Virus record (IMG/VR): IMGVR_UViG_3300030387_000070
Strand: one strand, 5' to 3'
Length of the DNA stretch: 64,000 nucleotides
From: a virus
Below the pieces are notes generated by a model. It was given only the letters and a program-made list of their open reading frames with translations, had not been told where the DNA came from and did no database searches. Shown in pieces: positions 15,123-39,843 of this stretch (position 1 is its first letter; every line of letters starts with the position of its first letter). The translations under genes and the position numbers were made by a program.

Positions 15123-15151
15123 TTGACTTATATGGTTGTATCCTGTATAAT
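15123..15151 (+). promoter_or_regulatory. consensus sigma70 promoter (TTGACT, 17 nt spacer, TATAAT) overlapping an inverted copy of the 21-bp motif
   Basis: -35 at 15123-15128 and -10 at 15146-15151; motif copy GTATCCTGTATAATATAGCTATG at 15138-15160. Confidence 0.6.
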
Positions 15152-15194
15152 ATAGCTATGGAACGGAGCTACACTATTATAGAGGAGAAAGATT

Positions 15195-15614
15195 ATGGAC
15201 AACAATATTGACCCAAAGGTCGGAGAGGTTTGGTTGGTCGATTTGTCAAATGCGACAGGTCATCAGCAGCGCGGTATTCGACCGTTCGTTGTGACGAGCA
15301 ACAATAAGCGCAACTTCTTTAGCCCCACAATCAAAGGGAATCCATTGTCTTCCAGAATATACAAGCGCTCTCCGGTTCATGTTCTACTTTCAAAGGAAGA
15401 TTGTGATTTCTTAGAAGTTGACAGTATCGTTCTTTGTGAAGAGACTGACACGCTTAACAAAGGACAGTTCATCAAAAAACTTGGTGTCTTGTCGGAACGT
15501 CAGATGAATATGATTGCAATGGCAAGATGTAAGGATGAACCGTTTTTGCTCGCAGCATTCCTGAGCGGCGTACAACATACTATGGAATTTCAGAATTTTG
15601 CCGCATTTGCTTGA
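15195..15614 (+). CDS. MazF/PemK-family endoribonuclease toxin-like protein
   Basis: RBS GAGGAGAAAG upstream; the N-terminus VGEVWLVDLSNATGHQQRGIRPFVVTSNN and overall pattern match the PemK/MazF fold; no MazE-like antitoxin seen upstream. Confidence 0.65.
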   Translation: MDNNIDPKVGEVWLVDLSNATGHQQRGIRPFVVTSNNKRNFFSPTIKGNPLSSRIYKRSPVHVLLSKEDCDFLEVDSIVLCEETDTLNKGQFIKKLGVLSERQMNMIAMARCKDEPFLLAAFLSGVQHTMEFQNFAAFA

Positions 15615-15667
15615 TTTTTTATAATGTTTAATGGTACACTACATATAATAAGAAGGAGTGTGCCACT

Positions 15668-16594
15668 ATGCTTACTGAAGAAAAAATCAACGCTTTTGCC
15701 GAAAGGTATTCTGATAAAAGCGGTAAGTTTGTTGTATCGACACTTAACAATGTTATGATCTATGAGGCCGAGTGTGGGTATGAGTTGTTTGATTTTACAA
15801 AAAATGATTTTGTAAAGATGTTTGCAAAATACAATTGGGTGAACTCAAGTCGTTCATTTAGAAATGTGAAATCAATAATCACTGGCTACATCAAAAGTGA
15901 AGATCGTACAAGTTTGTATGACTTGGCTGAATTTTCGGAAAATGACGTAAGTTCAGACGATATGTATGCAGACAAGTATTTTGCATCGGTTGATGAATTT
16001 GTTGACTTATTAAATAAATACGAAGAGCCATATCAGATTCGTATGAACGTGATTGCTGTATTATACTGGATCGGACTTACCGCTGGTGAAATTGTTAATC
16101 TAACAATCAATGATGTTGATTTTGAATCTCGTACTGTTCTCAATAGGACTGGTATTGATGCGAGGTTGATGGATATCATCAAGCAGTGTTATGAAATGAA
16201 ACAATATGATGCTCCCAACATGGGAGGATACAGAACGTTTTATGTCATAAACGGTGATTACATCCTTCGCAAAACAGAGGACAGGACTGGAGCAGACAGT
16301 GACCCAAAGATATCTACAAATACAATTCATACCTATTTTATGAGATTGAATGATATTCTCGAAAAAAGAGGTTGTTCTAAGATTTTGGACCAAAGACATT
16401 TAACAAGAAACAACGAGTATATCAAGGTTTATGACTATTGCAAAACTCATCCAGAATTTAATCTTGTAGAACTTAGCTTCGGAAATGGTAAAGATCCTCT
16501 TGCAGACATTATCGGAAGAAAGTGTAGCAAGGTAGCCTATATTAGCTTCCGGCAAGGATACAAGGGCTGGATTGAGTATTTCCATAAAAATTAA
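15668..16594 (+). CDS. hypothetical protein (308 aa)
   Basis: RBS AAGGAG upstream. Confidence 0.4.
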   Translation: MLTEEKINAFAERYSDKSGKFVVSTLNNVMIYEAECGYELFDFTKNDFVKMFAKYNWVNSSRSFRNVKSIITGYIKSEDRTSLYDLAEFSENDVSSDDMYADKYFASVDEFVDLLNKYEEPYQIRMNVIAVLYWIGLTAGEIVNLTINDVDFESRTVLNRTGIDARLMDIIKQCYEMKQYDAPNMGGYRTFYVINGDYILRKTEDRTGADSDPKISTNTIHTYFMRLNDILEKRGCSKILDQRHLTRNNEYIKVYDYCKTHPEFNLVELSFGNGKDPLADIIGRKCSKVAYISFRQGYKGWIEYFHKN

Positions 16595-16598
16595 AAAT

Positions 16599-16621
16599 AG
16601 GGGCTTCGGCCCCTTAATTTT
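16599..16621 (+). terminator. rho-independent terminator (AGGGGC-TTCG-GCCCCT plus T-run)
   Basis: Perfect 6-bp GC stem with a TTCG loop followed by TAATTTT. Confidence 0.6.
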
Positions 16622-16628
16622 AACACGT

Positions 16629-16649
16629 TAGCTATATAATACAGGATAC
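16629..16649 (+). promoter_or_regulatory. 21-bp promoter-associated motif TAGCTATATAATACAGGATAC, direct copy
   Basis: Contains TATAAT at 16635-16640, about 20 nt before the RBS of the Pnkp-like gene. Confidence 0.5.
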
Positions 16650-16670
16650 TTATTAGAAAGGGAAATGTAG

Positions 16671-18884
16671 ATGAGAACGCTTTTGCTGTTCCGTGGAGCA
16701 CCAGGTTGTGGGAAGTCCACCTATATTAAAGAGCATAATCTTGAGCAGTATGTATTGAATGCTGATACACTTCGACTTATGTGCCAGAGCGCACAGGAAA
16801 CACCTGCCGGGCGGATGGAGATCTCTCCGCAGAATGATGATGTTGTATGGGAGATGCTTTTCAAACTGCTTGAGGTGCGTATGAGTCATGGCGAGTTTAC
16901 CGTGATTGATGCAACGAATTCCAAGACGGTCGAAATGAATCGTTATAAGAATCTTGCAAAACAGTATCGTTATCGGATGTATGTTATTGACATGACGGAC
17001 CTTCCGATTGAGGAATGCAAACGAAGAAACGCTCAGAGAGAATGGCTGAATCGAGTTCCTGAAGCGGCCATTGATAAGATGTACGCTCGGTTTGCTACTC
17101 AAAAAGTTCCTTCTGGTGTGACAGTTCTTCCTTCTACTACGGATGTGATGTCCGATTTGAACTACTGTCCGAATGACTTCAACCAGTGGAAGAAGATCCA
17201 TATCATCGGTGATGTTCATGGCTGTTATACTTGTTTAAGTGAATACCTTGGTGAGATGAAGGACGACGAACTGTATATCTTCGTTGGTGATTATCTCGAT
17301 CGTGGCATCGAAAACGTTGAGGTATTCAAGTTCTTGTGTGATGTTGTAAATAACAACCGCAAGAATGTGATCCTTTTGGAGGGCAATCATGAGTGTTGGC
17401 TAAACAAGTGGGGGCATGATGAACCGGTTCAGAGTGAAGAGTTTGCAAACTACACTCGTCCGCAGCTCTTTAAAGCCGGTATTGACAAGAACACTGCTCG
17501 TAAGATCTATTCCAGAGTAGGCCAATGTGCCTACTTTGAGTATGATGGGAAGCGGTATTTCGTGAGCCACGGTGGTTTGAGTTATCTGCCTTATTTTCTT
17601 CCTTTCGTATCTGCTGATCAGATGATTAAAGGTGTAGGTCGCTATCCTGATATGCTAACCGTGGCTGAGTCTTGGGAAAAATCGATGCCGGATAGCTACA
17701 TTCAGATCTTCGGCCATCGAAATGTGCAGGATGTTCCTATTGATATGGGGCATCGGTGCTACAATCTCGAAGGAAAAATCGAGTTTGGTGGATATCTCCG
17801 TTGCGTTGAACTTGAACACGGTCAGTCAATCAAATGTGTAGAAACCAAGAACGATGTGTTCCGAAAAGAGGAGCCAAAGACTGAAACTGCCGTTGAAATG
17901 AAAACTGAGTTCGATAACGCAGAACTTGTTAGTAAGATGCGTCAAAGCAAATATGTGTTTGAGAAGCGATTCGGAGATATTTCTTCTTTCAACTTCTCTC
18001 GTGAAGCATTTTATAAGAAGCACTGGGATGAGGTTTCTACCAAAGCAAGGGGATTGTTCATTAACACAAAGACGAATAAGATTGTAGCTCGAAGCTATGA
18101 TAAGTTCTTTGCGGTTGATGAGCGGAATGAAACGAGAATTGGAAACCTACAGAACACTTTGAAGTTCCCAGTGACTGCATATCTAAAAGAGAACGGATTT
18201 CTTGGTATCATTTCGTATGATGCAGAACAGGATGGTCTGTTCATTGCAAGTAAATCCACTCCTGAAGGGCCTTTTGCAGATATGTTCCGAAAGATTATTA
18301 TGGATACTACTTCCGATGAAGATCGTAAGAATCTGAAGGAGGTTGCCAAGGAGCATGGCTCCATCATCTTTGAGGTTATTGATCCTGTGAATGATGCTCA
18401 TATCATAGAATACAAGAAACCGCACATTGTTTTGCTGGATGTTGTTGCAAACGATATGAATTTCAGTGTGATAGATTATGATGACTTGAAACGTGTCGCA
18501 GAAAAGTGTCATCTGCAGATTAAGGAGAAGGTTAAAACCTTTGAGAACTGGAGTGAATTCTATCCTTGGTATGAGGAAGTCATGAATGAGAACTATCTGT
18601 ACCATGACATCGAGCATGTTGAAGGCTTTGTTCTGAGAGATAGTAACAACTTTATGTTCAAGTTAAAGCTTCCTTATTATAAGCATTGGAAGTTCCTGCG
18701 TGGTGTTATGAAGAGCGTCCAGAAACGTGGCTATTACGAAAACACCGCCAAGCTGTTTACGGCTGAAGATAATTTGTTCTATGGTTGGATGCGTGAGCAA
18801 CGAGAGAAAGATCAAGAGGCGTTCAGCAAGAAGGGAATCATTCAGCTGCGAAATGAGTTCTATGCAAGTCAGCAGAAGAGTTGA
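16671..18884 (+). CDS. polynucleotide kinase-phosphatase-ligase (Pnkp-like RNA repair enzyme): P-loop kinase, calcineurin-like phosphoesterase and nucleotidyltransferase (ligase-like) domains
   Basis: Walker A GAPGCGKST at the N-terminus; metallophosphoesterase motifs GDVHG, GDYLDRG and GNHE; C-terminal nucleotidyltransferase motifs KENG (KxNG), EGFVLR and KLKLPYYK. Confidence 0.65.
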   Translation: MRTLLLFRGAPGCGKSTYIKEHNLEQYVLNADTLRLMCQSAQETPAGRMEISPQNDDVVWEMLFKLLEVRMSHGEFTVIDATNSKTVEMNRYKNLAKQYRYRMYVIDMTDLPIEECKRRNAQREWLNRVPEAAIDKMYARFATQKVPSGVTVLPSTTDVMSDLNYCPNDFNQWKKIHIIGDVHGCYTCLSEYLGEMKDDELYIFVGDYLDRGIENVEVFKFLCDVVNNNRKNVILLEGNHECWLNKWGHDEPVQSEEFANYTRPQLFKAGIDKNTARKIYSRVGQCAYFEYDGKRYFVSHGGLSYLPYFLPFVSADQMIKGVGRYPDMLTVAESWEKSMPDSYIQIFGHRNVQDVPIDMGHRCYNLEGKIEFGGYLRCVELEHGQSIKCVETKNDVFRKEEPKTETAVEMKTEFDNAELVSKMRQSKYVFEKRFGDISSFNFSREAFYKKHWDEVSTKARGLFINTKTNKIVARSYDKFFAVDERNETRIGNLQNTLKFPVTAYLKENGFLGIISYDAEQDGLFIASKSTPEGPFADMFRKIIMDTTSDEDRKNLKEVAKEHGSIIFEVIDPVNDAHIIEYKKPHIVLLDVVANDMNFSVIDYDDLKRVAEKCHLQIKEKVKTFENWSEFYPWYEEVMNENYLYHDIEHVEGFVLRDSNNFMFKLKLPYYKHWKFLRGVMKSVQKRGYYENTAKLFTAEDNLFYGWMREQREKDQEAFSKKGIIQLRNEFYASQQKS

Positions 18885-19001
18885 GTTAAAATAGACATTT
18901 TATCGTGATTTTCGTTAAAATAATTAACGAAGTATCGTGATATTTATTCCTCCGAAAATGCCATGCGTGGGGCTGACAGCCGGGAAAGACCGGCGATATA
19001 T

Positions 19002-19086
19002 GCCAAGGTGCTGCAAATGGGAGACAGGGCGAGCCCAAACCTCGCTGTGGAAACACATGCGGTTTCGAATACCGTCCTTGGCACCA
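19002..19086 (+). tRNA. tRNA-Leu(CAA), type II, CCA encoded
   Basis: Hand-folded: acceptor GCCAAGG/CCTTGGC, U8, T-loop TTCGAAT, long variable arm, anticodon loop CCCAAAC with an unusual C33, discriminator A73. Confidence 0.55.
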
Positions 19087-19114
19087 GATAATTTTATGAA
19101 GAAAGGATGATTGC

Positions 19115-19798
19115 ATGGTTAATAGGGCAGAAGATCATATTGGTGATGTCTTTGATTTGTTTGAGGTGATTGATGTTATTCGAGATGAAAATAATATTCC
19201 ATCTTACAAATGTCGATGTAAAGAATGTGGATGGACAGGGCTAAAAAATATAGCTCAGGCGAGAGCGGTTAAAGTGTGTCGGCATAAACAATCGAGTGGC
19301 GATTATAGAAATTTTTCTACACGGTGGAAAAACAAAAGAATCGGACGAATCTTTCATGGAATGAAAGCAAGATGCTATGATGTTGATGATAAAAACTATA
19401 TAACGTATGGCATGAAAGGAATTTGTGTTTATCAAGAATGGTTGGATAATCCAAAGTCATTTGAAGAGTGGTCGTTGAAAAATGGATACAAAGATAGTTT
19501 GACAATCGATAGAATTGATTCGACAAAAGATTACTGTCCTGATAATTGCAGATGGATATCATTGGAAGATAATTCAAAATATAAATCCACAACTCGAATG
19601 TTAGAAGTAGATGGTGAAATACATACGGGACGTGATTGGGCGGCAGAATTAGGGCTTGGAACAAACACGATAAATAAATATGTAAGAAGATACGGAGAAG
19701 ATAATACAAAACAATTTATAAGAAGAGTATTAAAGGACCCGGATAAAGTGAATTCTCGACAAGGGAAACAAACTATCTATAATCTTTACATGAACTAA
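19115..19798 (+). CDS. HNH homing endonuclease (HNH_3-type)
   Basis: HNH signature IDRIDSTKDYCPDNCRWISLEDN; low GC relative to neighbours; sits between tRNA genes. Confidence 0.55.
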   Translation: MVNRAEDHIGDVFDLFEVIDVIRDENNIPSYKCRCKECGWTGLKNIAQARAVKVCRHKQSSGDYRNFSTRWKNKRIGRIFHGMKARCYDVDDKNYITYGMKGICVYQEWLDNPKSFEEWSLKNGYKDSLTIDRIDSTKDYCPDNCRWISLEDNSKYKSTTRMLEVDGEIHTGRDWAAELGLGTNTINKYVRRYGEDNTKQFIRRVLKDPDKVNSRQGKQTIYNLYMN

Positions 19799-19805
19799 AT
19801 TGAAA

Positions 19806-19847
19806 TGGCCCAGTGTAAAAACTGAGTACATTGGGCCAAATATTTAT
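19806..19847 (+). terminator. rho-independent terminator (TGGCCCA...TGGGCCA plus AT-rich tail)
   Basis: 7-bp inverted repeat at 19806-19812 and 19832-19838 after the HNH gene. Confidence 0.45.
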
Positions 19848-19851
19848 ATGA

Positions 19852-19935
19852 GCACCCGTGGTGAAATTGGCAACCACGATGGACTTAAAATCCATTCCCG
19901 GTAACGGGTTGCGAGTCCGAGTCTCGCCGGGTGCA
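19852..19935 (+). tRNA. tRNA-Leu(TAA), type II
   Basis: Acceptor GCACCCG/CGGGTGC, anticodon loop CTTAAAA, 15-nt variable arm, A73. Confidence 0.65.
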
Positions 19936-19940
19936 TATTT

Positions 19941-20016
19941 CTGGGCGTAGCGAAGTTGGCATCGCACCTGTTTTGGGAACAGGGGACCGCAAGTTCAAAT
20001 CTTGTCGCTCAGACCA
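19941..20016 (+). tRNA. tRNA-Pro(TGG), CCA encoded
   Basis: Anticodon loop TTTGGGA, T-loop TTCAAAT, acceptor with one G-U pair, ends ACCA. Confidence 0.65.
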
Positions 20017-20023
20017 CTACGAG

Positions 20024-20111
20024 GATTCGCCAAGTTGGTAAGGCAGCGGAATTTGACTCCGCCAGCGCTGAACAAGCGGTCACAGGTTCGAGTCCTGTAT
20101 CCTCGGCTTAT
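20024..20111 (+). tRNA. anomalous type-II tRNA with anticodon TTG (Ser-like G73 body)
   Basis: Acceptor CGAGGAT/ATCCTCG, U8, D-arm GCC-AAGTTGGTAA-GGC, anticodon arm GCGGA-ATTTGAC-TCCGC, 19-nt variable arm, T-loop TTCGAGT, discriminator G. Confidence 0.45.
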
Positions 20112-20113
20112 AT

Positions 20114-20198
20114 GCGGGTATGGTGTAACTGGCAGCCACGTCAGATTTAGGATCTGATGCCGAAAGGCGTGAGGGATCGTGCCCCTCTACCCGTACCA
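20114..20198 (+). tRNA. tRNA-Leu(TAG), type II, CCA encoded
   Basis: Anticodon arm TCAGA-TTTAGGA-TCTGA, 13-nt variable arm, A73, CCA present. Confidence 0.6.
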
Positions 20199-20298
20199 CG
20201 GTCATAGAATGGTTGCGTACCGTTTGTTGATCTCCTTTACTATTATTCCCGGCTCGCCAGTGATGGTGCAGTAGTGCTTTGTAAGCTGGGTTTTCATG

Positions 20299-20372
20299 CA
20301 GCGGTCGTACAACGGCTAGTACATCAGCCTTCCAAGCTGAGGATGAGGTTTCGACTACCTTTCGCTGCTCCA
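20299..20372 (+). tRNA. tRNA-Gly(TCC), CCA encoded
   Basis: Acceptor GCAGCGG/TCGCTGC, anticodon loop CTTCCAA, T-loop TTCGACT, ends TCCA. Confidence 0.6.
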
Positions 20373-20560
20373 ATCTTGTATGGGTAGGATCTTTAGCGGT
20401 CAGATCCAGCCGCGCCTGTGCAAGATACCACCCCGAAAGGGGCGAGATATAGGAAATGTGCATCGCTGTTATTCCTTCCTCGTCTATATGATATAGATGC
20501 AATAGTGTTTTATAAGGAAGGTCCCCAGTTGAATAGTTGCAGCTGTTTGACTGGTAATAT

Positions 20561-20634
20561 GGGATAGTAGCTCAGTTGGTCAGAGCTGGCGGCTCATAAC
20601 CGCTTGGTCGCGAGTTCAAATCTTGCCTGTCCCA
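20561..20634 (+). tRNA. tRNA-Met(CAT), elongator-like
   Basis: Acceptor GGGATAG, D-arm GCTC-AGTTGGTCA-GAGC, anticodon loop CTCATAA, T-loop TTCAAAT; the 1-72 pair is formed, so not an initiator. Confidence 0.6.
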
Positions 20635-20742
20635 CTAACCCGATAGGGTGAATACATAGAATTTGCTAGAAATTTTGTTTTATGGGCGAATAAATAATAT
20701 GACGTTGATACGTCTATTATTTTTCGCTAATTTTTAAAGTTT

Positions 20743-20763
20743 TAGCTATGTAACACAGGATAC
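20743..20763 (+). promoter_or_regulatory. 21-bp promoter-associated motif, direct variant TAGCTATGTAACACAGGATAC
   Basis: Motif copy 3 nt before the AAAGGAGG RBS of the methyltransferase N-terminal part. Confidence 0.45.
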
Positions 20764-20780
20764 GAAAAGGAGGTGGTTTG

Positions 20781-21503
20781 GTGAAACATTATGGAAGTAT
20801 TTGCGAGATTGATGGTTCTAAGATTGAGCCTGTCTCGTGTATCACTGGTGGTTCACCTTGTTAGCCAAGACCTTTCTATTGCCGGCAAGCGGGCAGGTTT
20901 GGCTGGAGAACGGTCTGGTCTATTTATGGAAATGATTCGTGTGATAAAGGAGATGAGGGAGGCCACCAATGGAGAGTATCCAAAATTTGCAATCTGGGAA
21001 AACGTCCCAGGAGCCTTCTCTTCCAACAAAGGAGAAGACTTTAGATGTGTCTTGGAAGAATTTGCACGCATTGTCGAACCAAGTGTTTCAGTTCCTCGAC
21101 CTTCGGGAAGAGAATGTAAGTGGGCAAAAGCTGGAGCAATCGCCGGAAACGGATGGTCCTTGGCGTGGAGATTATTCGACGCTAGTGGTTGGGGTGTTCC
21201 CCAGCGTAGAAAACGTCTCGCGCTTGTCATGGACCTTAGAGGACAATGTGCCGGAAAAGTATTATTTGAGCAAACGGGCGTGTCAGGGGATCTTGATAAG
21301 AGCGTCAAGACGTGGAAAACCATTGCCCGACCTTCTGAAGGATGCACTGCAGGAGATGATTCATTGGTGGGAGATGAAAGATCCTACACTTTGAAGATTC
21401 GTTCTGGCTGCGCAGGGGGGGTAAAGGAGCACTCGTGCAGAATGAATTGAGTGCGACTCTCTCCACTTTGCAAGATCAGACTTTGTTCTGTGTAAAGCAT
21501 TAA
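20781..21503 (+). pseudogene. N-terminal part of a DNA (cytosine-5) methyltransferase (motifs IV, VI, VIII) split across three reading frames
   Basis: GTG 20781 after AAAGGAGG. Frame 0 reads VKHYGSICEIDGSKIEPVSCITGGSPC then TAG at 20853-20855. Frame 1 continues (S)QDLSIAGKR...ENVPG...QRRKRLALV...SYTLKIRSGCAGG. At the G7 run 21415-21421, frame 0 reads GKGALVQNELSATLSTLQDQTLFCVKH and stops at TAA 21501. Confidence 0.55.
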
Positions 21504-21515
21504 GGAGGGAACGGA

Positions 21516-22262
21516 TTGGAAAAAGAAACCAGTTTACATAATTTAAAACAAAATATTTCCACAGCGGTATTTGAAAGCCATAGTCAGGATGCTCGATACA
21601 CTCAGCAAGGTAATACAAGCCCAGCTTGTACAGCTCAATGGGGTACTGGTGGTAATAATATGCCGCTTGTCGCTGAAAAGAAAGCCTTTGCTATGCAGCG
21701 TATTGGCGAATATAAGGAAAGCGAACAGGCCAGCACAATGAAATCTCGTGATTATAAAGATGCAACTGATCTTGTAGTTGAAGAGAAAGAGGTGAAATGT
21801 GCTGGGTTTCCACTTGGATTTAGAGCAGAAAATACGAAATGCTACGATGAAGTGGCTACTACGCTTTGCAATGGTACGCGGCCTGGATTTACTACTGGAT
21901 GTGTTCTCAATTGGATTGTTCGCCGCTTGACTCCTGTTGAGTGTGAACGGTTACAGGGTTTTCCTGATGGATGGACCGATATTGGCGAGTGGGTTGACGA
22001 AAATGGTAAAAAGCACAAGCCAGCCGATTCTCCTCGGTACAAGGCGCTCGGCAATTCGATTGCTTTGCCTCAGTGGTATTGGATTTGCCAGAAGATGAAA
22101 CCGTATATTGGTGAAAATCCTACGCTTGGCAGTCTTTTCGATGGAATCGGTGGCTTTCCGCTTGTCTTTGAAAGTACGTATGGTGATGGTACTGCTATCT
22201 GGGGATCTGAAATTGAATCGTTTTGTGTTGCGGTGACAAAGAAGCATTTTCCAGAAGACTAA
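21516..22262 (+). CDS. C-terminal part of a C5 methyltransferase (TRD, motif IX, motif X) fused to MTase motifs I and II
   Basis: RBS AAGGAGG 7 nt before TTG 21516. Contains RRLTPVECERLQGFPDGWT (motif IX), YKALGNSIALP (motif X), then SLFDGIGGFPL (motif I) and WGSEIE (motif II) before the stop. Confidence 0.55.
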   Translation: MEKETSLHNLKQNISTAVFESHSQDARYTQQGNTSPACTAQWGTGGNNMPLVAEKKAFAMQRIGEYKESEQASTMKSRDYKDATDLVVEEKEVKCAGFPLGFRAENTKCYDEVATTLCNGTRPGFTTGCVLNWIVRRLTPVECERLQGFPDGWTDIGEWVDENGKKHKPADSPRYKALGNSIALPQWYWICQKMKPYIGENPTLGSLFDGIGGFPLVFESTYGDGTAIWGSEIESFCVAVTKKHFPED

Positions 22263-22299
22263 ATCTCATAAAAGGCTAATTCAAATAAGAGGTGACACG

Positions 22300-22781: not shown

Positions 22782-22798
22782 AAATGGGGTGATGCCAT

Positions 22799-23011: not shown

Positions 23012-23156
23012 CGGCGGGTGCCGTATGAAATATAAGCCATCAATAAACCAGACGGAGGATAATACATAAAATGAATAGTGCATGAATTGATTTAAGACGA
23101 TAACAGGAAACATAAGTGATTATCAATGGAACAAAATTACATAAAGGAGACTTGAT

Positions 23157-24257: not shown

Positions 24258-24270
24258 AATTTTTTAGTTT

Positions 24271-24291
24271 TAGCTAAGTAATACAGGATAC
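24271..24291 (+). promoter_or_regulatory. 21-bp promoter-associated motif, direct variant TAGCTAAGTAATACAGGATAC
   Basis: Copy located 37 nt before ATG 24328. Confidence 0.45.
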
Positions 24292-26180: not shown

Positions 26181-26193
26181 AAGAGGTTGGTAA

Positions 26194-27409: not shown

Positions 27410-27432
27410 AAAATATAAAGGGAGGTGGATGA

Positions 27433-28956: not shown

Positions 28957-28965
28957 GGAACTACA

Positions 28966-31709: not shown

Positions 31710-31710
31710 T

Positions 31711-32058
31711 ATGGGAAATCGGAAGCGTGCTATTGCCATCGACTTTGATGGCACTCTCTGTGAGAATAATTATCCCGATATTGGTGAGCCAAACTGGAAT
31801 GTAATTTATGAAGCAATTCAGGAACAGAAGCATGGTGCGGGCTTGATTCTATGGACTTGCCGGGAAGGGAAGCTCTTGTATGACGCAATGGAAGCTTGCT
31901 TCGATTGGGGCATTCAGTTTGATGCAATCAATGAGAGCCTTCCTGAGTGGAAAGAGCATTTTGGCACTGCTCCTAGAAAGGTTGGAGCTGATGAATATTG
32001 GGATGATAAGGCTAAAGTTGTAAAGAATGGAGAGTTGATTGATAATGCTGATGCCTGA
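31711..32058 (+). CDS. HAD-superfamily small phosphatase-like protein
   Basis: Motif I IDFDGTLC. Confidence 0.4.
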   Translation: MGNRKRAIAIDFDGTLCENNYPDIGEPNWNVIYEAIQEQKHGAGLILWTCREGKLLYDAMEACFDWGIQFDAINESLPEWKEHFGTAPRKVGADEYWDDKAKVVKNGELIDNADA

Positions 32059-32230
32059 ACAGTTTGAAGCAGACGTTAAAGAATTTATCGCAGAATGCCA
32101 AAGCCATCCAGTGATAGATTTATCAAAAGATGATCCATGCGAAGGATGTCGCTTTGAGGACTTTTGCGATAGGTTTTATCCGGGCGATGGTAGCACATGG
32201 CATTGGCGAGTTTATGAAGGGGGCGAATGA
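32039..32230 (+). CDS. hypothetical protein
   Basis: ORF; start uncertain between 32039 and 32048. Confidence 0.3.
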   Translation: MIMLMPEQFEADVKEFIAECQSHPVIDLSKDDPCEGCRFEDFCDRFYPGDGSTWHWRVYEGGE

Positions 32231-32989
32231 ATGGTTTACATTACAGGTGATATTCATGGTGATTTTAATCGTCTCTTAAAGCTAAATAAGTTTTGCCATA
32301 AACACAATCTTGGAAGGAATGACTGGATTGTCTGCCTTGGCGATGTCGGTTTGAACTACTACGGCAAGGATGACCCTCGTGAATGGAGTATCAAGACCAT
32401 CGCCGCAGATATTCCTGCAAATCTGTTTTGTATTCATGGCAACCACGAGCGCCGCCCGTCTCGTAAGGATGGTTACAAACTAAGGAAGATTTGTGGTGAT
32501 ATTTGCGGAAGAGTGTGGTATGACCCGCAGTATCCAAACCAGTATTTTGCTATTGATGGTGAGGTTTACCAGATTTCTGCTGATATGGAAATTTTGAACT
32601 GCCTTGTTTGCGGCGGAGCTTATTCCGTAGATAAATATTATCGGTTGGAGCGGGGATATAATTGGTTTCCCGATGAACAGCCGAATGAAAAAATAAAAAA
32701 GAAAGTTGCGCAGCAGGTAAACGATAGTAATATCGATGTTGTGTTAAGTCACACCTGTCCGACACGCTACGTTCCTACAGAGTTGTTTCTTAGTTGTGTT
32801 GATCAAAGCACTGTTGATAGTTCTACGGAAGAGTTTCTTGATGATATTCTTGATATTCTGGAAGAGACTCATATTGGTAAGCCGTTCTGGTATTTTGGTC
32901 ACTTCCATGGAAATAAATACACTGACAATTATGTGATGCTTTTTGATGATGTTATTAAATTTGGAGATAAGGTGAATACGGATGACTAA
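32231..32989 (+). CDS. calcineurin-like metallophosphoesterase
   Basis: Motifs GDIHGD, GDVG and GNHE. Confidence 0.65.
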   Translation: MVYITGDIHGDFNRLLKLNKFCHKHNLGRNDWIVCLGDVGLNYYGKDDPREWSIKTIAADIPANLFCIHGNHERRPSRKDGYKLRKICGDICGRVWYDPQYPNQYFAIDGEVYQISADMEILNCLVCGGAYSVDKYYRLERGYNWFPDEQPNEKIKKKVAQQVNDSNIDVVLSHTCPTRYVPTELFLSCVDQSTVDSSTEEFLDDILDILEETHIGKPFWYFGHFHGNKYTDNYVMLFDDVIKFGDKVNTDD

Positions 32990-33305
32990 AGATAAAAGTT
33001 TACGAGTGCTTGATTATATTGATGGCAAGGAAATCCTCATTCAAATGGGTGAGGAAGGTTCTGAGCTGTCGAAAGCTGCGATAAAGTTTTATCGTGCAAT
33101 TGACATGAAGAACCCAACACCTGTAAGTATCAATGAAGCTTACGAAAATCTCGTAGAAGAATTCGGTGATGTGTTGAACTGTATCTACGCATACTATGAT
33201 GATGACGAGGATTGCATCTTAGCGTTTACATCGAAAGCGAATGAGATTGCTAACGAGAAGCGCAAGCGCTGGATTAAGCGTCTGAAGGAACGCGACCAGT
33301 TTTAA
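32982..33305 (+). CDS. MazG-like nucleotide pyrophosphohydrolase domain protein
   Basis: EEGSELSKA and EEFGDVL motif pair. Confidence 0.45.
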   Translation: MTKDKSLRVLDYIDGKEILIQMGEEGSELSKAAIKFYRAIDMKNPTPVSINEAYENLVEEFGDVLNCIYAYYDDDEDCILAFTSKANEIANEKRKRWIKRLKERDQF

Positions 33306-33323
33306 TGGTGAAAGGAGAATAGA

Positions 33324-36300
33324 ATGCCAAGTAGTCTACACACACACTCGAATTACAGTCTACTAGATGGGTACTCTTCTCCTGAAGAAAATCTAAAAAG
33401 AGCATCAGAACTTGGTTTGAAAGCCATTGCCATTACGGAACATGGTGAGGTAACAAGCTGGCCGTACTATTCTGAACTAAAAGGCAAGTATCCGAATGTC
33501 AAACTTCTTTATGGTATCGAGGCATACGAGTGCGAAGATAGGGAAGTCAAGGACAAGAATAGTAAATATTGGCATTTAATCATTATTGCCAAGAACGAAG
33601 CTGGTCGTCAGGCAGTCAATCGCTTATCTACACTCGGTCATCTTCATGGCTTTTACAGCCGTCCTCGTATCACAAAAGAGGATATCGCTAAGGAAGATAC
33701 GAATAATTTGATTATCCTGTCTGCTTGTTTGGCGAGTAGGCTGTCAAGAACGGATGATTATGACACTTGTGTCAAGCTGGTTCAAGAGTATAAGAGCTTA
33801 TTCCCTCACTATTATCTTGAGGTTCAGGCTCATGCAAACAGTGAACAAGCAAAATATAATCAGAAAATCATGCGGTTGGCAAACGATACTCATACAAAAG
33901 TAGTCGTCACAAACGATGTTCATGCTGCTACCAAAGAGGATCTTTATTATCAAGATTATTTCCTTCGTATCGCTCATGATACGGAAACCGCCACAGAAAT
34001 CTATGAAGGGTGCTACTTCATGTCTCGTGATGAGCAGCATAGAGCCCTTGATAATCAGATTGGATACGATGCGGCAGAATGGTGTATCAATAATACTGAC
34101 GAGGTTGCTGATCTGTGTGATGATGTGGATATGCCTTGGCATGAACCGGAACTTCCCAAAATTGAGATTCCGCCACAGTATTCTAATTCGGCAGCTTATC
34201 TGAAAGACCTTGTAAAAGAGGGATGTAAGAAACGTAGCATTGATAAGTTTGATGTAGAAAAGCAGAAAATCTATCGAAAACGTGTTGATGATGAGCTGTT
34301 TGTCATTGAGAAGAAAGACTTCTGTGACTACTTTTTGATTCTGGTTGATTACATCAACTGGTGTAAGAAAAATGATGTCATTGTTGGCCCTGGTCGTGGT
34401 TCTGCTGCTGGTTCTCTTGTATGTTACCTGATTGGCATTACGCAGCTTGATTCCATCAAGTATGAACTTGACTTCGGACGATTCCTTACCATTGAGCGAA
34501 AAGACCTTCCTGACGTTGATGTTGATGTCAGTGACCGTGCCAAGGTTGTCGAGTATCTGACACAGAAGTATGGAGAAGATCGAGTAGTTCAGGTTATGAA
34601 CATCGTGTACACTACTCCGGTTACTTCAATTCAAGATGTTGGTAAGGTGCTCGGTTTCCCGTATGCCGAGATAAGAAAAATCAGTGAGAAGTTCGTTCAA
34701 AAGACATGGAAAGATTGCCTTGAAGCCAACACAGAAGTAGCTGAGAATCCAAAATATAAGGAACTACTTGATATTGCAAGTCATATCAATGGTCGCCCAC
34801 GAGGATATGGTATCCATGCTGGCGGTGTTATTGTTTGCCGACATCCTTATTACGAGTATATCGGTATCCGGCATGGTACTGACGGAGAGCACGTTATTTC
34901 CGTTGATAAGGTGATGGACGAGAAGATTGGACTTGTTAAGTTTGATATTCTTGGTGTTGCGTCGCTGGTTGCCATTGATGAAGCGAAGCGTGAGGATAAT
35001 ATTCCAGACTGGGAAATTGATATCAACAATCCTGAATTTGAAAACGACAAGGCAACTTACGATTTGATTTGCTCCGGTAAGACAGACAATCTATTCCAGA
35101 TTGAATCGTCCGGCATGAAAGATCTGGTTGCGCAGCTTCAACCTAGGTCGATTGAAGAACTATCCGCTTTGATTGCTCTTTATCGCCCTGATGCAATGCC
35201 GTCCATTCCTACATACGTTGACTGCAAGTATCATCCCGAACACATTCATTATTTCCATCCTGATATGGAACCAATTTTCCGCAGTACCTATGGCGTGAAC
35301 ATCTATCAGGAACAGAGTATGAAGCTCACAAAGGTCTTTGGTGGCCGAAGCGATGCTGGTGCTGATAGAATGCGTAAGTGCTTGGCAAAGAAAAAACCTG
35401 AGAAGGTCAAGGAAGAGGTAGAACTTCTTCACGATGAAATTCTTGCAAATGGATACGATAAAGCAACCGCTGAGTATATTTGTAACGAGTTGTCAACGAA
35501 GGGCGGCTATGGTTTCAATAAGTGTATTTCTGGCAACACGAAGTTGTGGAGAATGAGAAGTGGTCGGTTTGAGCCTACTGTTGCAGAAATGTACAAGATT
35601 CGCAATGATAGGAAGTTTGCTATCTTGACAAATCACACACATCTTAGGGACAAATATAGACGATACGGTTACGGTAGTGCGTTGTCAATGTGTGATGATG
35701 GACGCATTCGGATGAATAAAATTATTGATATCAAGTATTCTGGATATCGAATGCTGTATCGTGTAACAACTGAGACCGGTGCGACCATTGAATGTACAGA
35801 TAATCATAAATTCCCGACAACTGATGGCATTAAGTTGCTTTCTGATATGAGAATTGGTGATGAGTTATATGAGATTGGTGCTTATGAGGTTTGCAGAAAC
35901 AAGTATAATCTGACGGATGGAAATTTCGAAAGCAATTTGCCGAAGCCGGGACAAATGGGGTTCCAGACGAAGGAATTTAGTGCGAATCGTCTGTTTGAAG
36001 AGACGAAAGAAAAGAATAGACTGAAAAGAAGCCCATGTGAAATTTGCGGTAGAGAATATTCCGAAGATGCTCGTTTTGAAGTACACCACAAAGATTTTGA
36101 CCATACGCATAATGTACCTGATAACTATACTTGGTGCTGTGCATCGTGTCACAAGAAACTTCATTACGCTCACGGGCGAGTAAAACAGTATGAAAAGGGC
36201 ATCCCGTCAAAGACCGCTAAGATTATTTCTATTGAGGAAATTGGTTTTGATGATGTCTATGATGTGACAATGGATGCTCCGAATCACAATTTTGTAGTGT

Positions 36301-37340
36301 CAACTGGTATTGTAACTTGCAACTCTCATTCACAAGCCTATGCTGACATCTGTCTCCAGACTGCATATTTGAAAGCCCACCATCCGCTTGCATTCTTTAA
36401 GGCTATGCTGAACCTGAATAAAGCAAAGGTCGGCAAGGTCAACAAGATTATGGTGGATGCACGCAGCTTTGATATTCAGATTCTTCCGCCGAGTATCAAT
36501 CGTTCCGGCATGGACTTTACTGTGTCAAATGGTAAAATCCTGTTTGGCTTATCTGCTATCGGTGGTATTGGCGATACGCTTGCTGAAACTATCATTGCAG
36601 AACGAGATAGAAATGGAAAATTTAAGGGACTTGATGATTTCACGAGTCGTGTTCGTGCAACGAAGGCGCAGATTATTGCATTGGTTAAATCCGGTGCGAT
36701 TCCTACAAAGAACAAACGAATATTCTTGGAAAAGTACATTACCAGCGGTCTGGAACAATCTGAGTTTAAGCCAGTCAGTACACTTCCTACCAAGGCAGTT
36801 TTGCTGAGTAAGTGGGGTATTGATACAGAGCATTATAAGGTTGGTAAAAAGGTTGACAAAGAAACCGTCTTACGGATCTATAATGAAAAGCGCCGTGTCG
36901 TACATGAAACCGAGAAGCTGAAAAAGAAAGAAGCGTATATGGACGAGCAGACCACAAAATATCTACAAGATGAAGAACTTTGGGAGTTCCAGACTTTGCA
37001 GACCTTTATCAGTGACCCGAATCCTTTCGAGAAGGCATTTACTTATATCAAGGATTTCTCTGAAATCGAAGAAGGTGATTCTTGTGTACTGGTTGGTATT
37101 ATCGCAAAGATTCAGAAGAAGAAAACGAAGACTGGTATGCAGTTTGCATTTGTAAATCTGTATTCTGGCGATGGTATTATTGAGCTGACCGTATGGCCGA
37201 GAGTCTTGTCGGATTATCAGGATTTGATTGTAAAGGGAAGTCAGGTGGCTGTGCTTGGAAAGAAGGAAGATGAATCGCACGTTATTGCAAGCAACTTCAA
37301 ACCTTACAAGCAGTGGTTGCATGATAGAGAGATAGCGTAA
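33324..37340 (+). CDS. dnaE: DNA polymerase III alpha (DnaE-family) with in-frame intein
   Basis: PHP domain HTHSNYSLLDG at the N-terminus; the GYGFNK-SHSQAYA catalytic motif is interrupted by an insert. Confidence 0.75.
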   Translation: MPSSLHTHSNYSLLDGYSSPEENLKRASELGLKAIAITEHGEVTSWPYYSELKGKYPNVKLLYGIEAYECEDREVKDKNSKYWHLIIIAKNEAGRQAVNRLSTLGHLHGFYSRPRITKEDIAKEDTNNLIILSACLASRLSRTDDYDTCVKLVQEYKSLFPHYYLEVQAHANSEQAKYNQKIMRLANDTHTKVVVTNDVHAATKEDLYYQDYFLRIAHDTETATEIYEGCYFMSRDEQHRALDNQIGYDAAEWCINNTDEVADLCDDVDMPWHEPELPKIEIPPQYSNSAAYLKDLVKEGCKKRSIDKFDVEKQKIYRKRVDDELFVIEKKDFCDYFLILVDYINWCKKNDVIVGPGRGSAAGSLVCYLIGITQLDSIKYELDFGRFLTIERKDLPDVDVDVSDRAKVVEYLTQKYGEDRVVQVMNIVYTTPVTSIQDVGKVLGFPYAEIRKISEKFVQKTWKDCLEANTEVAENPKYKELLDIASHINGRPRGYGIHAGGVIVCRHPYYEYIGIRHGTDGEHVISVDKVMDEKIGLVKFDILGVASLVAIDEAKREDNIPDWEIDINNPEFENDKATYDLICSGKTDNLFQIESSGMKDLVAQLQPRSIEELSALIALYRPDAMPSIPTYVDCKYHPEHIHYFHPDMEPIFRSTYGVNIYQEQSMKLTKVFGGRSDAGADRMRKCLAKKKPEKVKEEVELLHDEILANGYDKATAEYICNELSTKGGYGFNKCISGNTKLWRMRSGRFEPTVAEMYKIRNDRKFAILTNHTHLRDKYRRYGYGSALSMCDDGRIRMNKIIDIKYSGYRMLYRVTTETGATIECTDNHKFPTTDGIKLLSDMRIGDELYEIGAYEVCRNKYNLTDGNFESNLPKPGQMGFQTKEFSANRLFEETKEKNRLKRSPCEICGREYSEDARFEVHHKDFDHTHNVPDNYTWCCASCHKKLHYAHGRVKQYEKGIPSKTAKIISIEEIGFDDVYDVTMDAPNHNFVVSTGIVTCNSHSQAYADICLQTAYLKAHHPLAFFKAMLNLNKAKVGKVNKIMVDARSFDIQILPPSINRSGMDFTVSNGKILFGLSAIGGIGDTLAETIIAERDRNGKFKGLDDFTSRVRATKAQIIALVKSGAIPTKNKRIFLEKYITSGLEQSEFKPVSTLPTKAVLLSKWGIDTEHYKVGKKVDKETVLRIYNEKRRVVHETEKLKKKEAYMDEQTTKYLQDEELWEFQTLQTFISDPNPFEKAFTYIKDFSEIEEGDSCVLVGIIAKIQKKKTKTGMQFAFVNLYSGDGIIELTVWPRVLSDYQDLIVKGSQVAVLGKKEDESHVIASNFKPYKQWLHDREIA
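35523..36323 (+). mobile_element. intein (267 aa) with HNH homing-endonuclease domain inside dnaE
   Basis: The insert starts with Cys after GYGFNK and ends ...IVTCN before Ser (SHSQAYA); internal HNH motif CEICG...HHKDFDHTHN...CCASCH. Confidence 0.7.
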
Positions 37341-37352
37341 GAGGGTTATAAA

Positions 37353-39683
37353 GTGGCAGATAAGAAATTTAATGAAAATATGATCCGTTGCTACATTAGG
37401 ATAAAACGAGTCTTTTATCCGAAAGATGGGAAGGAGGTGGAGCCCGGCGGCTTCGCCACTTTCTCTGCCGAAGTGATAAAAGTCAAGCAGGGGAACCCCA
37501 TTATGAGCCGATACAGTGACCTCCGACTGAAAGGCAACGTCCCTAGCCTTGATATGAATAAGACTTATTCGTTCTGTGGTGAGTATGTTCACCATGAAAA
37601 GTTTGGGGACCAGTATAAAATCGTCTATATGAACGAGTTCCAAGAGATTACTGACCCAGAAGAACAGAAAAGTTTTCTCCATTTTATCTTAACAGAACAT
37701 CAGTTTGAGATGCTTTACGAAGCATTTGATAATCCGTATGAGATCATCAAGAACGGTGATATCAAGTCTCTTTGCACTGTTAGTGGTATCACAGAAGGTC
37801 GAGCACAGAAAATTATCGATGCCTTTGAAAATAACATTGATAACAGCGAAGCATACACGAAGCTGATTGAGTATGGTTTGACTCCAAGTGCAATCGGAAA
37901 ACTTGTTCATCAATATCACGGTGCAGACACTCTTGTGAAGAAAATTGAAGAGAATCCTTATGTTCTGATTGACGATGTATATGGGATTGGATGGAAGAAA
38001 GCTGACGCTCTTGCTTTGAATATGGGATTGAAGCCAAACTCTCAGTTCCGAATTGAAGCTTACGTCATGCATTTTCTTGCTGATCGTGCCGAAGAAGGCA
38101 ATTCTATCATCCCGGCAAACCAGACAATCAATAGTTGCATTAAGGAACTTGGCTTGGATGAGGGTGACCAAGAGGTTATCAAGAGAGCACTTTTCCATCT
38201 GCACGATGTCCGCGAAACGCTTTGGTGGAGTGATGATCGTCAGGAATTTGCTTTAACAAGAGTGTGGAATCTGGAAAATAAGATTTCAAAGGAAATTAAG
38301 CGTCTGGCGGATGCACCTGTCGAGCCGATTGGTCGAAACATGGATGCTGCAATCGACGAAGCAGAACATGCTCTTGGCATCGAGTACACTGAGGAGCAGA
38401 GAGATGCTATTAAAAAGGTATGCTCTAGCAACATCTGTATCTTAACAGGCTACGGCGGAACTGGTAAAAGTACCGTTGTCGCTGGTGTTCTAAAGGTTCT
38501 TCGTGGTAAGTCTTTTGCTCAGACTGCACTTTCTGGTCGTGCCGCAGCTCGTATGCAGGAGATTACTGGTCAGGATGGAAAGACCATTCACCGTCTTCTT
38601 GGCTACGACATCGAGAACGGTGGGTTTGTTCACGATAAGGACAATCCTCTGGAAGAAGACATTATCATTCTGGATGAGACCTCTATGGTTGGAGCTCAGT
38701 TGTTCTATGACTTGATTCAGGCTATCGAGACCGGAAAGCGATTCATCATGATTGGCGATGACGGCCAGCTTGAGAGTATTGGTATGTGCAACATCTTCAA
38801 GGATATGCTTGCCTCCAAGGTTGTTCCGGTTGCTCGCTTGACGAAGATTCACCGTCAGGCTGCTAAGTCAGCGATTATCACAGAGAGCATCAAGGTTCGT
38901 AATGCCACGCAGTTGGTTCCTTACGGTTGGGCTGGTAATGAGATTCGTGGTGAGCTGCGTGATTTGGAGCTAGATATCTACAAGGATGCAGGCGAGTCGT
39001 TTAACCACATCATCAATCAATACCGTACCTTATATAATAAGGTAGGGAATGACAGCGCAAAGATTCAGATTGTACTTCCGCAGAAGCTCCGTGGTAGCAT
39101 TTGCACCTACGAGGTGAATAACGCCATTCAGGAAATTGTAAATCCGAGTCGTGGTCAGGCAGAAGCAAAGGTCACAATCTACGGTGATGGCAAGGATAGA
39201 GTGTACACTCTGCGTGAGGGCGATCAGGTCATTATCAACAAGAATAACTATGAGCTTCATACATACAATCTCAAGACAAAGAAAAAGGAAGAGAAGTGTC
39301 CGGTGTTCAACGGAAACCGTGGCATTATCCGAAAGATTGAGAGTAGTTTTATTCTGGTTGACTTTGACCAGTGGGGAACTATCTTCATTCCTCATTATTT
39401 TGGTGGGAACAACATCTGGGCAACACTTGAACTCGCTTATGCTTTGAGTTGTCATAAACTGCAAGGTAGCGAAGCTCCGTATGTAATTGTCGGCATGGAC
39501 AACTCTGCATACCTGATGTTGACGAGAGAATGGCTCTATACGGCCATCACTCGTGCCAAGAAGTATTGTGTGATTTGCGCCGAAACTCATGCTCTTGATC
39601 GGGCTGTAAAGACTTCAAGAGTGCCATATAAGCGGACGTTCTTGAAGGAATTTTTACGGAAAGAATTTTCAGAAAAGCGTTGA
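37353..39683 (+). CDS. RecD2-like SF1 DNA helicase with N-terminal HhH region
   Basis: GTG start after GAGGGT; Walker A GYGGTGKST; HhH-like GITEGRAQKIIDAF and GIGWKKADAL. Confidence 0.65.
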   Translation: MADKKFNENMIRCYIRIKRVFYPKDGKEVEPGGFATFSAEVIKVKQGNPIMSRYSDLRLKGNVPSLDMNKTYSFCGEYVHHEKFGDQYKIVYMNEFQEITDPEEQKSFLHFILTEHQFEMLYEAFDNPYEIIKNGDIKSLCTVSGITEGRAQKIIDAFENNIDNSEAYTKLIEYGLTPSAIGKLVHQYHGADTLVKKIEENPYVLIDDVYGIGWKKADALALNMGLKPNSQFRIEAYVMHFLADRAEEGNSIIPANQTINSCIKELGLDEGDQEVIKRALFHLHDVRETLWWSDDRQEFALTRVWNLENKISKEIKRLADAPVEPIGRNMDAAIDEAEHALGIEYTEEQRDAIKKVCSSNICILTGYGGTGKSTVVAGVLKVLRGKSFAQTALSGRAAARMQEITGQDGKTIHRLLGYDIENGGFVHDKDNPLEEDIIILDETSMVGAQLFYDLIQAIETGKRFIMIGDDGQLESIGMCNIFKDMLASKVVPVARLTKIHRQAAKSAIITESIKVRNATQLVPYGWAGNEIRGELRDLELDIYKDAGESFNHIINQYRTLYNKVGNDSAKIQIVLPQKLRGSICTYEVNNAIQEIVNPSRGQAEAKVTIYGDGKDRVYTLREGDQVIINKNNYELHTYNLKTKKKEEKCPVFNGNRGIIRKIESSFILVDFDQWGTIFIPHYFGGNNIWATLELAYALSCHKLQGSEAPYVIVGMDNSAYLMLTREWLYTAITRAKKYCVICAETHALDRAVKTSRVPYKRTFLKEFLRKEFSEKR

Positions 39684-39708
39684 CAATCATGTTCGTATCC
39701 TGTATAAT
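39680..39708 (+). promoter_or_regulatory. consensus sigma70 promoter (TTGACA, 17 nt spacer, TATAAT) overlapping an inverted 21-bp motif copy (39695-39717)
   Basis: -35 at 39680-39685 and -10 at 39703-39708. Confidence 0.6.
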
Positions 39709-39754
39709 ATAGCTATGAAAAGTCTCCATCTCGGAGGCTTAAAATTCTCTCTTT

Positions 39755-39774
39755 AACTATATAATACAGGATAC
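39755..39774 (+). promoter_or_regulatory. 21-bp motif, direct copy AACTATATAATACAGGATAC
   Basis: Followed by the hairpin and the MACS mini-ORF. Confidence 0.45.
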
Positions 39775-39776
39775 GG

Positions 39777-39816
39777 GAAAGGAATGGCTTGCTCGTAATG
39801 GCAAGCCTTTCTTTAT
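39777..39816 (+). terminator. hairpin GAAAGG-AAT-GGCTTGC-TCGTAAT-GCAAGCC-TTTC plus T-rich tail (terminator or attenuator)
   Basis: Complementarity seen directly; the 4-codon ORF ATG GCT TGC TCG TAA (39784-39798) lies inside the stem. Confidence 0.4.
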
Positions 39817-39823
39817 TCATTAC

Positions 39824-39843
39824 AACTATATAACACAGGATAC
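39824..39843 (+). promoter_or_regulatory. 21-bp motif, direct copy AACTATATAACACAGGATAC
   Basis: Ends 6 nt before the AAGGAGG RBS of the ligase gene. Confidence 0.45.

Follow-up and report, generated by a model that had tools for sequence, protein, structure and literature searches.

The virus record IMGVR_UViG_3300030387_000070 provides a 64,000-nucleotide stretch of DNA (hereafter, the window) in which a 21-bp box, TAGCTATATAATACAGGATAC, recurs in both orientations. Here, we describe this box together with the gene for a 308-amino-acid integrase-fold protein that lies among its copies and is proposed to be the master repressor that reads it. The phage-part genes of the window are all on the + strand and include those for a MazF-like toxin, a Pnkp/RNA ligase, seven tRNAs, a C5 DNA methyltransferase, a Sak4-like ATPase, a primase and RecJ, as well as an intein-containing DnaE, RecD2, a DNA ligase and NrdD. 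The window corresponds to the right arm of an approximately 130-kb prophage of the SPbeta-like type, with the host junction near 61.4 kb.

A search with TAGCTATATAATACAGGATAC allowing up to three mismatches returned exactly seven matches on the two strands of the window and none in 100 dinucleotide-preserving shuffles of it, in agreement with the seven copies in both orientations listed in a preliminary description of this DNA; five of the coordinates given there were also exact (15138, 16629, 20743, 24271 and 39695), whereas the other two (39755 and 39824) were off by one. A k-mer census of the 64 kb identified this family as the sole strongly repeated element. Copy 1 (15138-15158, - strand) reads GTATCCTGTATAATATAGCTA on the + strand and lies over the -10 element of the sigmaA promoter of the mazF-like/mrpR-like operon. 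Copy 2 (16629-16649, +) is an exact consensus and is located between a terminator and the ribosome binding site (RBS) of the Pnkp/RNA-ligase gene (16671-18884), and copy 3 (20743-20763, +; TAGCTATGTAACACAGGATAC) is 3 nt 5' of the RBS of the C5 DNA methyltransferase gene. Copy 4 (24271-24291, +; TAGCTAAGTAATACAGGATAC) lies within an operon, with a gene of 366 amino acids (a weak match to single-stranded DNA-binding proteins) directly upstream and the Sak4-like gene, the first of a 15-kb replication operon (24328-39683), downstream. The remaining copies are near the DNA ligase gene (39857-41188): copy 5 (39695-39715, -) is positioned over the -10 element of the promoter ahead of the ligase region, copy 6 (39754-39774, +) is separated from the ligase start by 82 nt that include a terminator and copy 7, and copy 7 (39823-39843, +) is 3 nt 5' of the ligase RBS. 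Copies 5 and 6 form an outward-facing pair with a 38-nt spacer between them.

IMG/VR contigs also matched the exact 18-mer of the box, in more than 118 stretches; most of these contigs are 125-139 kb in length, and most come from collection 3300045988. The conserved block in these relatives has sharp limits and measures 21 bp, with 1.1-2.0 bits inside and less than 1 bit at most flanking positions, which bears out the earlier observation that conserved flanks extend beyond a -10 element. The box is bipartite, TAGCTA and the 3' nonamer ACAGGATAC (the latter invariant in all seven window copies) being near-invariant among relatives and the central hexamer drifting (TATAAT, TACAAT, TAAAAT, TGAAAT, AGTAAC and others). 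It is long, asymmetric and non-palindromic, and is present at about 12 sites per genome in the relatives, all of them intergenic. Genome contigs scanned for the 18-mer gave five matches, one of them in a Faecalibacterium metagenome-assembled genome contig; none of these contigs was otherwise similar to the window and the matches were read as chance. Rfam and ARAGORN searches of the window detected tRNAs only and no RNA family at the box. Two explanations at the RNA level were dropped: an RNA hairpin or RNase III site formed by pairing of a reverse with a forward copy, because the reverse copy contains the sigmaA start and most copies have no partner, and a site of MazF-type RNA cleavage, because antisense copies exist and forward copies stand directly behind terminators.

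Between the copies at 15138 and 16629, the open reading frame (ORF) at 15668-16594 (+) encodes the 308-amino-acid protein. In a single-sequence scan it matched the Pfam family MrpR_N_CB at a sub-threshold level only, and 28 of the 44 homologues in its profile matched this family. The profile, built with distant homologues, matched the MrpR/YopR structures 8A0A, 8BJ6 and 8BJV in the PDB over residues 1-306 (E 1.5e-18), and its hhalign comparison with phi3T SroF gave a probability of 97.4% (E 1e-11). An AlphaFold2 model of the protein had a predicted local distance difference test (pLDDT) score of 90.3 with a deep alignment, which was needed, as the single sequence gave a score of 32. The seven best PDB fold matches of the model were all SroF, YopR or MrpR and ranked ahead of true recombinases; the top match was SroF bound to DNA and the list includes 9RD5, 9RGL, 8BPZ, 8BJ6 and 8A0A (SroF-DNA, SroF-Sar, YopR and MrpR). 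At the first catalytic arginine position (GLRxxE), the single position compared, the protein reads GLTAGE; its C-terminal tyrosine, Y298, is invariant among the homologues, much as Tyr304 is retained in MrpR. We conclude that ORF 15668-16594 encodes a full-length homologue of the SPbeta/phi3T MrpR/YopR/SroF proteins.

The pairing of this protein with the box was examined in contigs L209-L213, which are short contigs of closely related phages with distant repressor alleles at the equivalent locus. Protein identity to the window is 91-94% for the MazF-like toxin and 89-96% for Pnkp but 34-38% for the repressor, which is the only strongly diverged gene of the exchanged segment. At every site covered by these contigs, the box has been replaced with its position and orientation unchanged: the reverse box over the -10 element of the mazF promoter has become GAAATTCTGTATACTATACTTA (L210-L212), and the forward box behind the terminator of the repressor gene has become GTAGTATAGTAAACAGAATTT, TAAGAGTAGTAAACAGAATTT, TTAGTATGGTATTCAGAATTT or TATGAGTGGTAAACAGAATTT (L209-L213). 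Despite the swap, the -35 element, the -10 character, the terminator and the RBS are retained. Since the repressor has diverged and the boxes have been replaced while the neighbouring genes remain about 90% identical, the repressor and its boxes are, as judged from sequence, a heteroimmune repressor/operator module, and this co-variation is the strongest evidence that the 308-amino-acid protein would be the one to read the box. The variant box pattern, when searched in IMG/VR, returned chance sites only, and the repressor allele P0079 had no relative in IMG/VR or the JGI metagenomes. A promoter-like match at 15598-15625, in the 3' end of mazF, was considered as the repressor's own promoter and rejected because its -10 element is not conserved in L210; co-transcription of the repressor gene from the boxed promoter at 15123 is therefore preferred.

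We thus consider that the 21-bp motif is probably the operator box of the prophage's SPbeta-type master repressor, the counterpart of SPBRE and the SroF box, to which the 308-amino-acid protein would bind. On the criteria tested (homology of the repressor, type and copy number of the box, integration as a prophage, and co-variation of box and allele), the system belongs with the MrpR/SroF-SPBRE systems. The preliminary description had left three options, a regulator specific to the phage, a discriminator for a sigma factor, or an operator common to a regulon; the first and the last of these are favoured by the SroF/MrpR-family gene among the copies and by the co-variation, whereas a discriminator is at odds with the forward copies.

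The two orientations of the box differ in their promoter context. Both reverse copies in the window are inside sigmaA-type promoters, as had been reported: TTGACT-17-TATAAT at 15123-15151 (+) has its -10 element inside copy 1, and TTGACA-17-TATAAT at 39680-39708 (+; a 12/12 match) has its -10 element inside copy 5 and is the only strong intergenic + strand promoter match within 20-40 kb. Of 103 reverse copies among relatives, 94 have TTGAC[AT] with a spacing of exactly 17 bp, and the reverse copies always retain, in the direction of the gene, the A at -11 and the T at -7 (TATAAT in 54, TATTAT in 39 and TATTCT in 9). This layout is the classical operator-over-promoter geometry, and it is only in this reverse class that the box centre is a -10 element. 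The distance from the end of a forward copy to the next start codon, which has a strong RBS, is 13-36 nt, with the exception of copy 39754, which stands 82 nt from the ligase start. A description as TATAAT-centred promoters does not fit the forward copies: no forward window copy has a -35 element or a TGn extended -10, and the hexamers often carry C at -7 or G/C at -11 (TATAAC, TGTAAC, AGTAAT, TCTAAT), positions critical for sigma recognition. Recognisable sigmaA promoters are found at the two reverse copies and at a divergent control region of the relatives, and none at forward copies, including the copy ahead of the relatives' polymerase gene (see below). The location of the copies at operon starts applies to the two reverse promoters; two forward copies follow terminators and the copy at 24271 follows a gene inside an operon.

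These observations bear on the proposal that all copies are special host sigmaA promoters, consisting of a -10 element with discriminator or extended flanks and perhaps served by a phage factor that bypasses the -35 element. Such a class would explain why the consensus centre TATAAT faces genes in both orientations, why the reverse copies are perfect sigmaA promoters and why T-rich tracts lie 5' of the forward copies. We regard it as very unlikely because the forward copies have neither of the elements named above, many conserved copies carry C in place of the -7 T and others carry G or C in place of the -11 A, the variant forward boxes of the heteroimmune relatives are often not -10-like at all, and the flanks co-vary with the repressor allele. 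Moreover, neither the phage-encoded sigma factor raised in the preliminary description nor an AsiA-like factor was identified in the scanned ORFs of the window, which were mainly the larger ones with many small ORFs left unscanned, or in the scanned loci of relatives.

Several copies are accompanied by hairpins. An intrinsic terminator (16599-16614, +; AGGGGCTTCGGCCCCT and a T-rich tail), kept in relatives, is situated 3' of the repressor gene, and a terminator-like hairpin (20701-20714, +) lies after the tRNA array just upstream of copy 3. The 38-nt spacer between copies 5 and 6 contains a hairpin (39719-39740, +) that was interpreted as a stem-loop in the 5' leader or else a weak terminator, and a strong terminator-like hairpin of 8 pairs followed by TTTCTTTATT (39786-39807, +) is placed between copies 6 and 7. 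Promoter-like matches for the tRNA genes, at 18892 and 19756, are not accompanied by a box copy.

Relatives that carry the window's loci encode a 930-amino-acid YonO homologue (Pfam RdRP PF05183, E 9e-15; tblastn to SPbeta yonO, E 5e-19) with the metal motif GADFDGD, at L006 1340-4132 (-) and L119-L198; the gene is absent from the window, which does not include that arm. The polymerase is of the two-barrel, single-chain type and shares 40% identity with a protein of Clostridium phage c-st, 38% with Enterocloster phage proteins and 25% with SPbeta YonO. Downstream are genes for a 261-amino-acid ORF, ClpP-like and PhoH-like proteins, a YonK homologue and a metallophosphatase. The 261-amino-acid gene is followed by a hairpin, long but imperfect and with a T-tail, that marks a candidate region for the real late promoter. 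All 80 polymerase loci have window-type boxes, and the polymerase gene is preceded by a forward box at a distance of 30 nt. The boxes of about 37 genomes map exclusively to 0, +3-4, +8-12, +29-32, +34-41 and +49-57 kb relative to this gene, that is, to its upstream region, the divergent control region, where two copies point outward, and the early/replication arm. The late arm of these approximately 37 relatives has no copy, and none was found between the polymerase gene and the YonK homologue in 76 loci. Reverse (antisense) copies occur at three conserved loci.

The motif could then be the promoter of this YonO-like single-subunit RNA polymerase, with forward copies that would start middle-gene transcripts and reverse copies that would occlude host sigmaA promoters or prime leftward transcription. 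In addition to the forward copy ahead of the polymerase gene, this proposal draws on the nature of the box as a contiguous 21-bp block without a -35 element, co-oriented with genes, 13-36 nt from their starts and often post-terminator, on the two outward copies at the divergent control region, on a central hexamer that breaks sigmaA rules and on a 19-kb replication region without a sigmaA promoter. SPbeta YonO has been shown to transcribe only the late operon, from a single start upstream of yonK, and its promoter sequence was never defined (PMC5467207), so that there is no contradiction by sequence. However, the proposal is weakened by the absence of copies ahead of the YonK homologue and the late genes, where SPbeta YonO acts. 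The reverse copies would also fire antisense into the 15-kb replication operon and ORF 14777-15103, and the box changes with the repressor allele while neighbouring genes are about 90% identical. Furthermore, PMBT24 (L200/L201), an Enterocloster phage with a 38% identical polymerase, has no multi-copy promoter-like family. Its only repeat, TTCAATTCGTAAAGTAAAA, is present in six copies (1078, 2162, 5034, 73406, 73601 and 87072), lies about 21 nt upstream of a sigmaA-type -35 element in the three copies checked (5034, 73406 and 87072) and is followed by the same hairpin at copies 1078 and 73406; it is probably PMBT24's own regulator box. Overall, we judge a role of the motif as polymerase promoter alone to be unlikely.

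The XerD-like protein of PMBT24 was considered as an MrpR counterpart and set aside, as it is not an MrpR homologue. The SPbeta yonN-yonK region contains no motif resembling the box. To the right of the divergent control region, L006 has approximately 1.9 kb without ORFs (7125-8970), with GC-rich tracts gtgtgcgcgtgcgcacacacacgcc and three GGACTAGACG repeats, which recalls the 1.7-kb non-coding yonN-yonK stretch of SPbeta (L199) and may be a non-coding RNA, an attachment region or a packaging region.

Outward-facing pairs such as copies 5 and 6, reverse then forward, have a spacer of 38-40 nt in 96 of 96 cases at three unrelated loci, and no convergent pair was found; the spacer contains a hairpin at two of these loci and a leftward sigmaA promoter at the third. 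Pairs of this kind could be sites of DNA transactions, for example a divergently primed replication origin or residual recombination-type core sites for the integrase-fold protein. The constancy of the spacer and of the orientation would suit such a role, as would the presence of one pair between RecD2 and the ligase gene, inside the replication module, and the recombinase fold of the proposed binding protein. Most copies are single, though, the arms flank promoters or RBSs with no crossover spacer, and the first active-site arginine motif is GLTAGE and not GLR, as expected for a family with an integrase fold that is no longer recombining (PMC10516654). This explanation is accordingly held to be highly improbable.

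Under the operator reading, one repressor monomer would clamp each box in the lysogen. Over the -10 elements of the reverse boxes, the bound repressor would block host RNA polymerase, which at 15123-15151 would repress the operon of the mazF-like and repressor genes and hence amount to autoregulation, and at 39680-39708 would close the promoter ahead of the ligase region. The forward boxes may function as roadblocks between a terminator or an upstream gene and the RBS of a lytic gene, their putative targets being the Pnkp/RNA ligase, the DNA methyltransferase, the Sak4-like replication operon and the DNA ligase, and in relatives the YonO-like RNA polymerase gene. Behind the terminators at 16599-16614 and 20701-20714, such roadblocks would stop read-through from the lysogen-expressed repressor operon and tRNA genes.

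A number of observations weigh against this reading. Forward copies are always co-oriented with the next gene and close to its start codon, and a roadblock does not obviously need either. The fixed spacing of 38-40 nt in pairs is not predicted by a monomeric repressor. The orientations are split here, reverse over a promoter and forward otherwise, as opposed to the one orientation in phi3T, and the box has no sequence similarity to that of phi3T. No convincing intergenic sigmaA promoter was found in the 19 kb at 20.7-39.7 kb apart from the box sites, so that the replication genes would rely on terminator read-through. In addition, L209-L213 are too short to show the polymerase, and the box may formally co-vary with that enzyme. 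As the co-orientation, the pair spacing and the promoterless 19 kb are left unexplained, both the polymerase-promoter proposal and a dual function are kept alive. In the latter, forward copies would be repressor boxes and YonO-like polymerase promoters at once, with the repressor in competition with the polymerase; we think this quite unlikely, but if it were true, the YonO class of two-barrel single-chain polymerases would have in the 21-bp consensus its first defined promoter.

The prophage assignment is based on the right end of the window, where the GC content rises from about 0.40 to 0.62 at a junction (61038-61435) with a bidirectional terminator at approximately 61380-61420. An HTH_17 (excisionase-type) gene at 60807-61037 is the last phage gene, just inside the junction and after a FolD-like gene (59983-60810), the next-to-last; outside the phage, a heavy-metal P-type ATPase gene of the host (CopA-like) occupies 61436-63994 (-). 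The GC jump, the host CopA-like gene and the excisionase-type gene indicate that the element is an integrated prophage and the window its right end. Near and distant DNA searches of annotated phages with the window identified no relative and gave only tRNA-sized and 39-nt matches. At the left of the region considered here, the first gene 3' of the boxed promoter is the PemK/MazF-like toxin gene (15195-15614, +; PF02452, E 2e-19). ORF 14777-15103, which could encode the antitoxin partner of the MazF-like gene, is preceded by a strong promoter-like TTGACG-16-TATAAT at 14707-14734. The direct repeat ACAAAAAGATGTGTAATATAT / ACAAAAAGATGTGTATAATATAT frames this site (region 14654-14776). The arrangement is conserved in part in L210 and might represent a separate second operator or a duplicated -10.

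Other features of the window were noted in passing. A small palindromic hairpin of the TAACGTAGATACGTTA type recurs in L210 (945-1022, 11030-11060, 15090-15120 and 16643-16720) and in the window (18900-18935 and 20701-20714), each followed by an A/T-rich tract and an RBS, and could be a weak-terminator family or a second regulatory site. The tRNA array, seven genes in all (Leu x3, Pro, Gln, Gly and Met), extends over 19002-20635 and has unassigned gaps of 99 and 188 nt (including 20199-20560) that may hold other small RNAs, and the matching region of L210 is 1.2 kb. The C5 cytosine methyltransferase is in two ORFs (20791-21450 and 21516-22262) which correspond to the N- and C-terminal parts of PF00145, and its counterpart in L210 is one gene of 460 amino acids; the split could reflect a pseudogene, an intervening element or a split enzyme. 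Similarly, the overlapping ORFs 26194-26670 and 26645-27409 match successive parts of a phosphoadenosine phosphosulfate reductase domain, perhaps through a frameshift or a programmed split. The intein mentioned above (Intein_splicing domain, residues 747-998) is in the DnaE-type polymerase III alpha gene (33324-37340). In the early region at 733-1444, three consecutive small genes (starts 733, 957 and 1196) share their first 13 nt, ATGTGGGATTTAA, and resemble a tandem paralogue family.

These findings point to an SPbeta-type repressor logic in a phage family of about 125-140 kb that is represented by well over a hundred contigs, mostly in collection 3300045988. They yield a concrete 21-bp operator and at least one heteroimmune repressor/operator variant group, with a regulon likely to be silenced that comprises replication, DNA modification, RNA repair and the phage polymerase. 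Repressor/box pairs of this kind could serve as orthogonal regulatory parts. To our knowledge, the SPbeta-like phages of Bacillus are to date the only ones in which a master repressor of the integrase fold has been reported together with dispersed asymmetric operators.

In SPbeta, MrpR (YopR) binds the repeated SPBRE at ten promoter regions, including that of yonP upstream of yonO and that of the yopM-yopR operon which contains mrpR itself (PMC10516654). The SroF protein of phi3T is an integrase-fold monomer that encircles a 26-bp asymmetric box, of which 24 bp are read (bioRxiv 10.1101/2025.11.27.690993). The window phage resembles SPbeta and phi3T in prophage size (about 130 kb), in replication-gene order (Sak4-like, primase, RecJ and DnaE follow the yorG-yorL order of phi3T), in a YonO-type polymerase, the latter in the window's relatives, and in the integrase fold of the repressor, shared by the 308-amino-acid protein. 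SPBRE and the SroF box are likewise long, asymmetric, non-palindromic and present in roughly ten copies, and SPBRE is distributed as here over early-arm regulatory regions, the divergent control region and the region upstream of the polymerase gene, with one box at the promoter of the repressor-gene operon. In both cases, repressor and box have been swapped together between heteroimmune relatives.

The boxes themselves are unrelated, TAGCTA-N6-ACAGGATAC here as against the A-tract box CAGTAATTTTATTTTTATTCTTAATG in SPbeta/phi3T, and they differ in length (21 bp against 15-26 bp). Those of phi3T have a single orientation and are mostly upstream of or within sigmaA promoters (-35/spacer), whereas here the reverse class is over the -10 element and, unlike in SPBRE/SroF systems, many boxes are promoterless and abut an RBS. 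In our reading of the phi3T sequence, however, boxes stand directly before the RBS inside operons at yonP and yorF, so that promoterless boxes have a precedent. The outward-facing pairs with a 38-40 nt spacer and the MazF-like toxin gene directly 5' of the repressor gene are features of the present system and not of SPBRE/SroF, and the host is a gut bacterium of 62% GC, as opposed to Bacillus. Such differences in layout raise the question of how a monomeric clamp repressor blocks transcription.

Promoters of the T7 class and of YonO are similar to the box as contiguous directional blocks of about 20 bp just 5' of genes, with no -35 element and often post-terminator; the box differs from them in its absence from the late arm, its antisense copies in host promoters (three loci) and its co-variation with the repressor allele. 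Lambdoid immunity regions exchange a repressor gene and the operators on either side of it as one unit between nearly identical neighbours, as is the case here. The lambdoid repressor, though, is a helix-turn-helix dimer with operators clustered at two divergent promoters, whereas the protein proposed here is a monomeric integrase-fold repressor and its boxes are asymmetric and dispersed over more than 55 kb.

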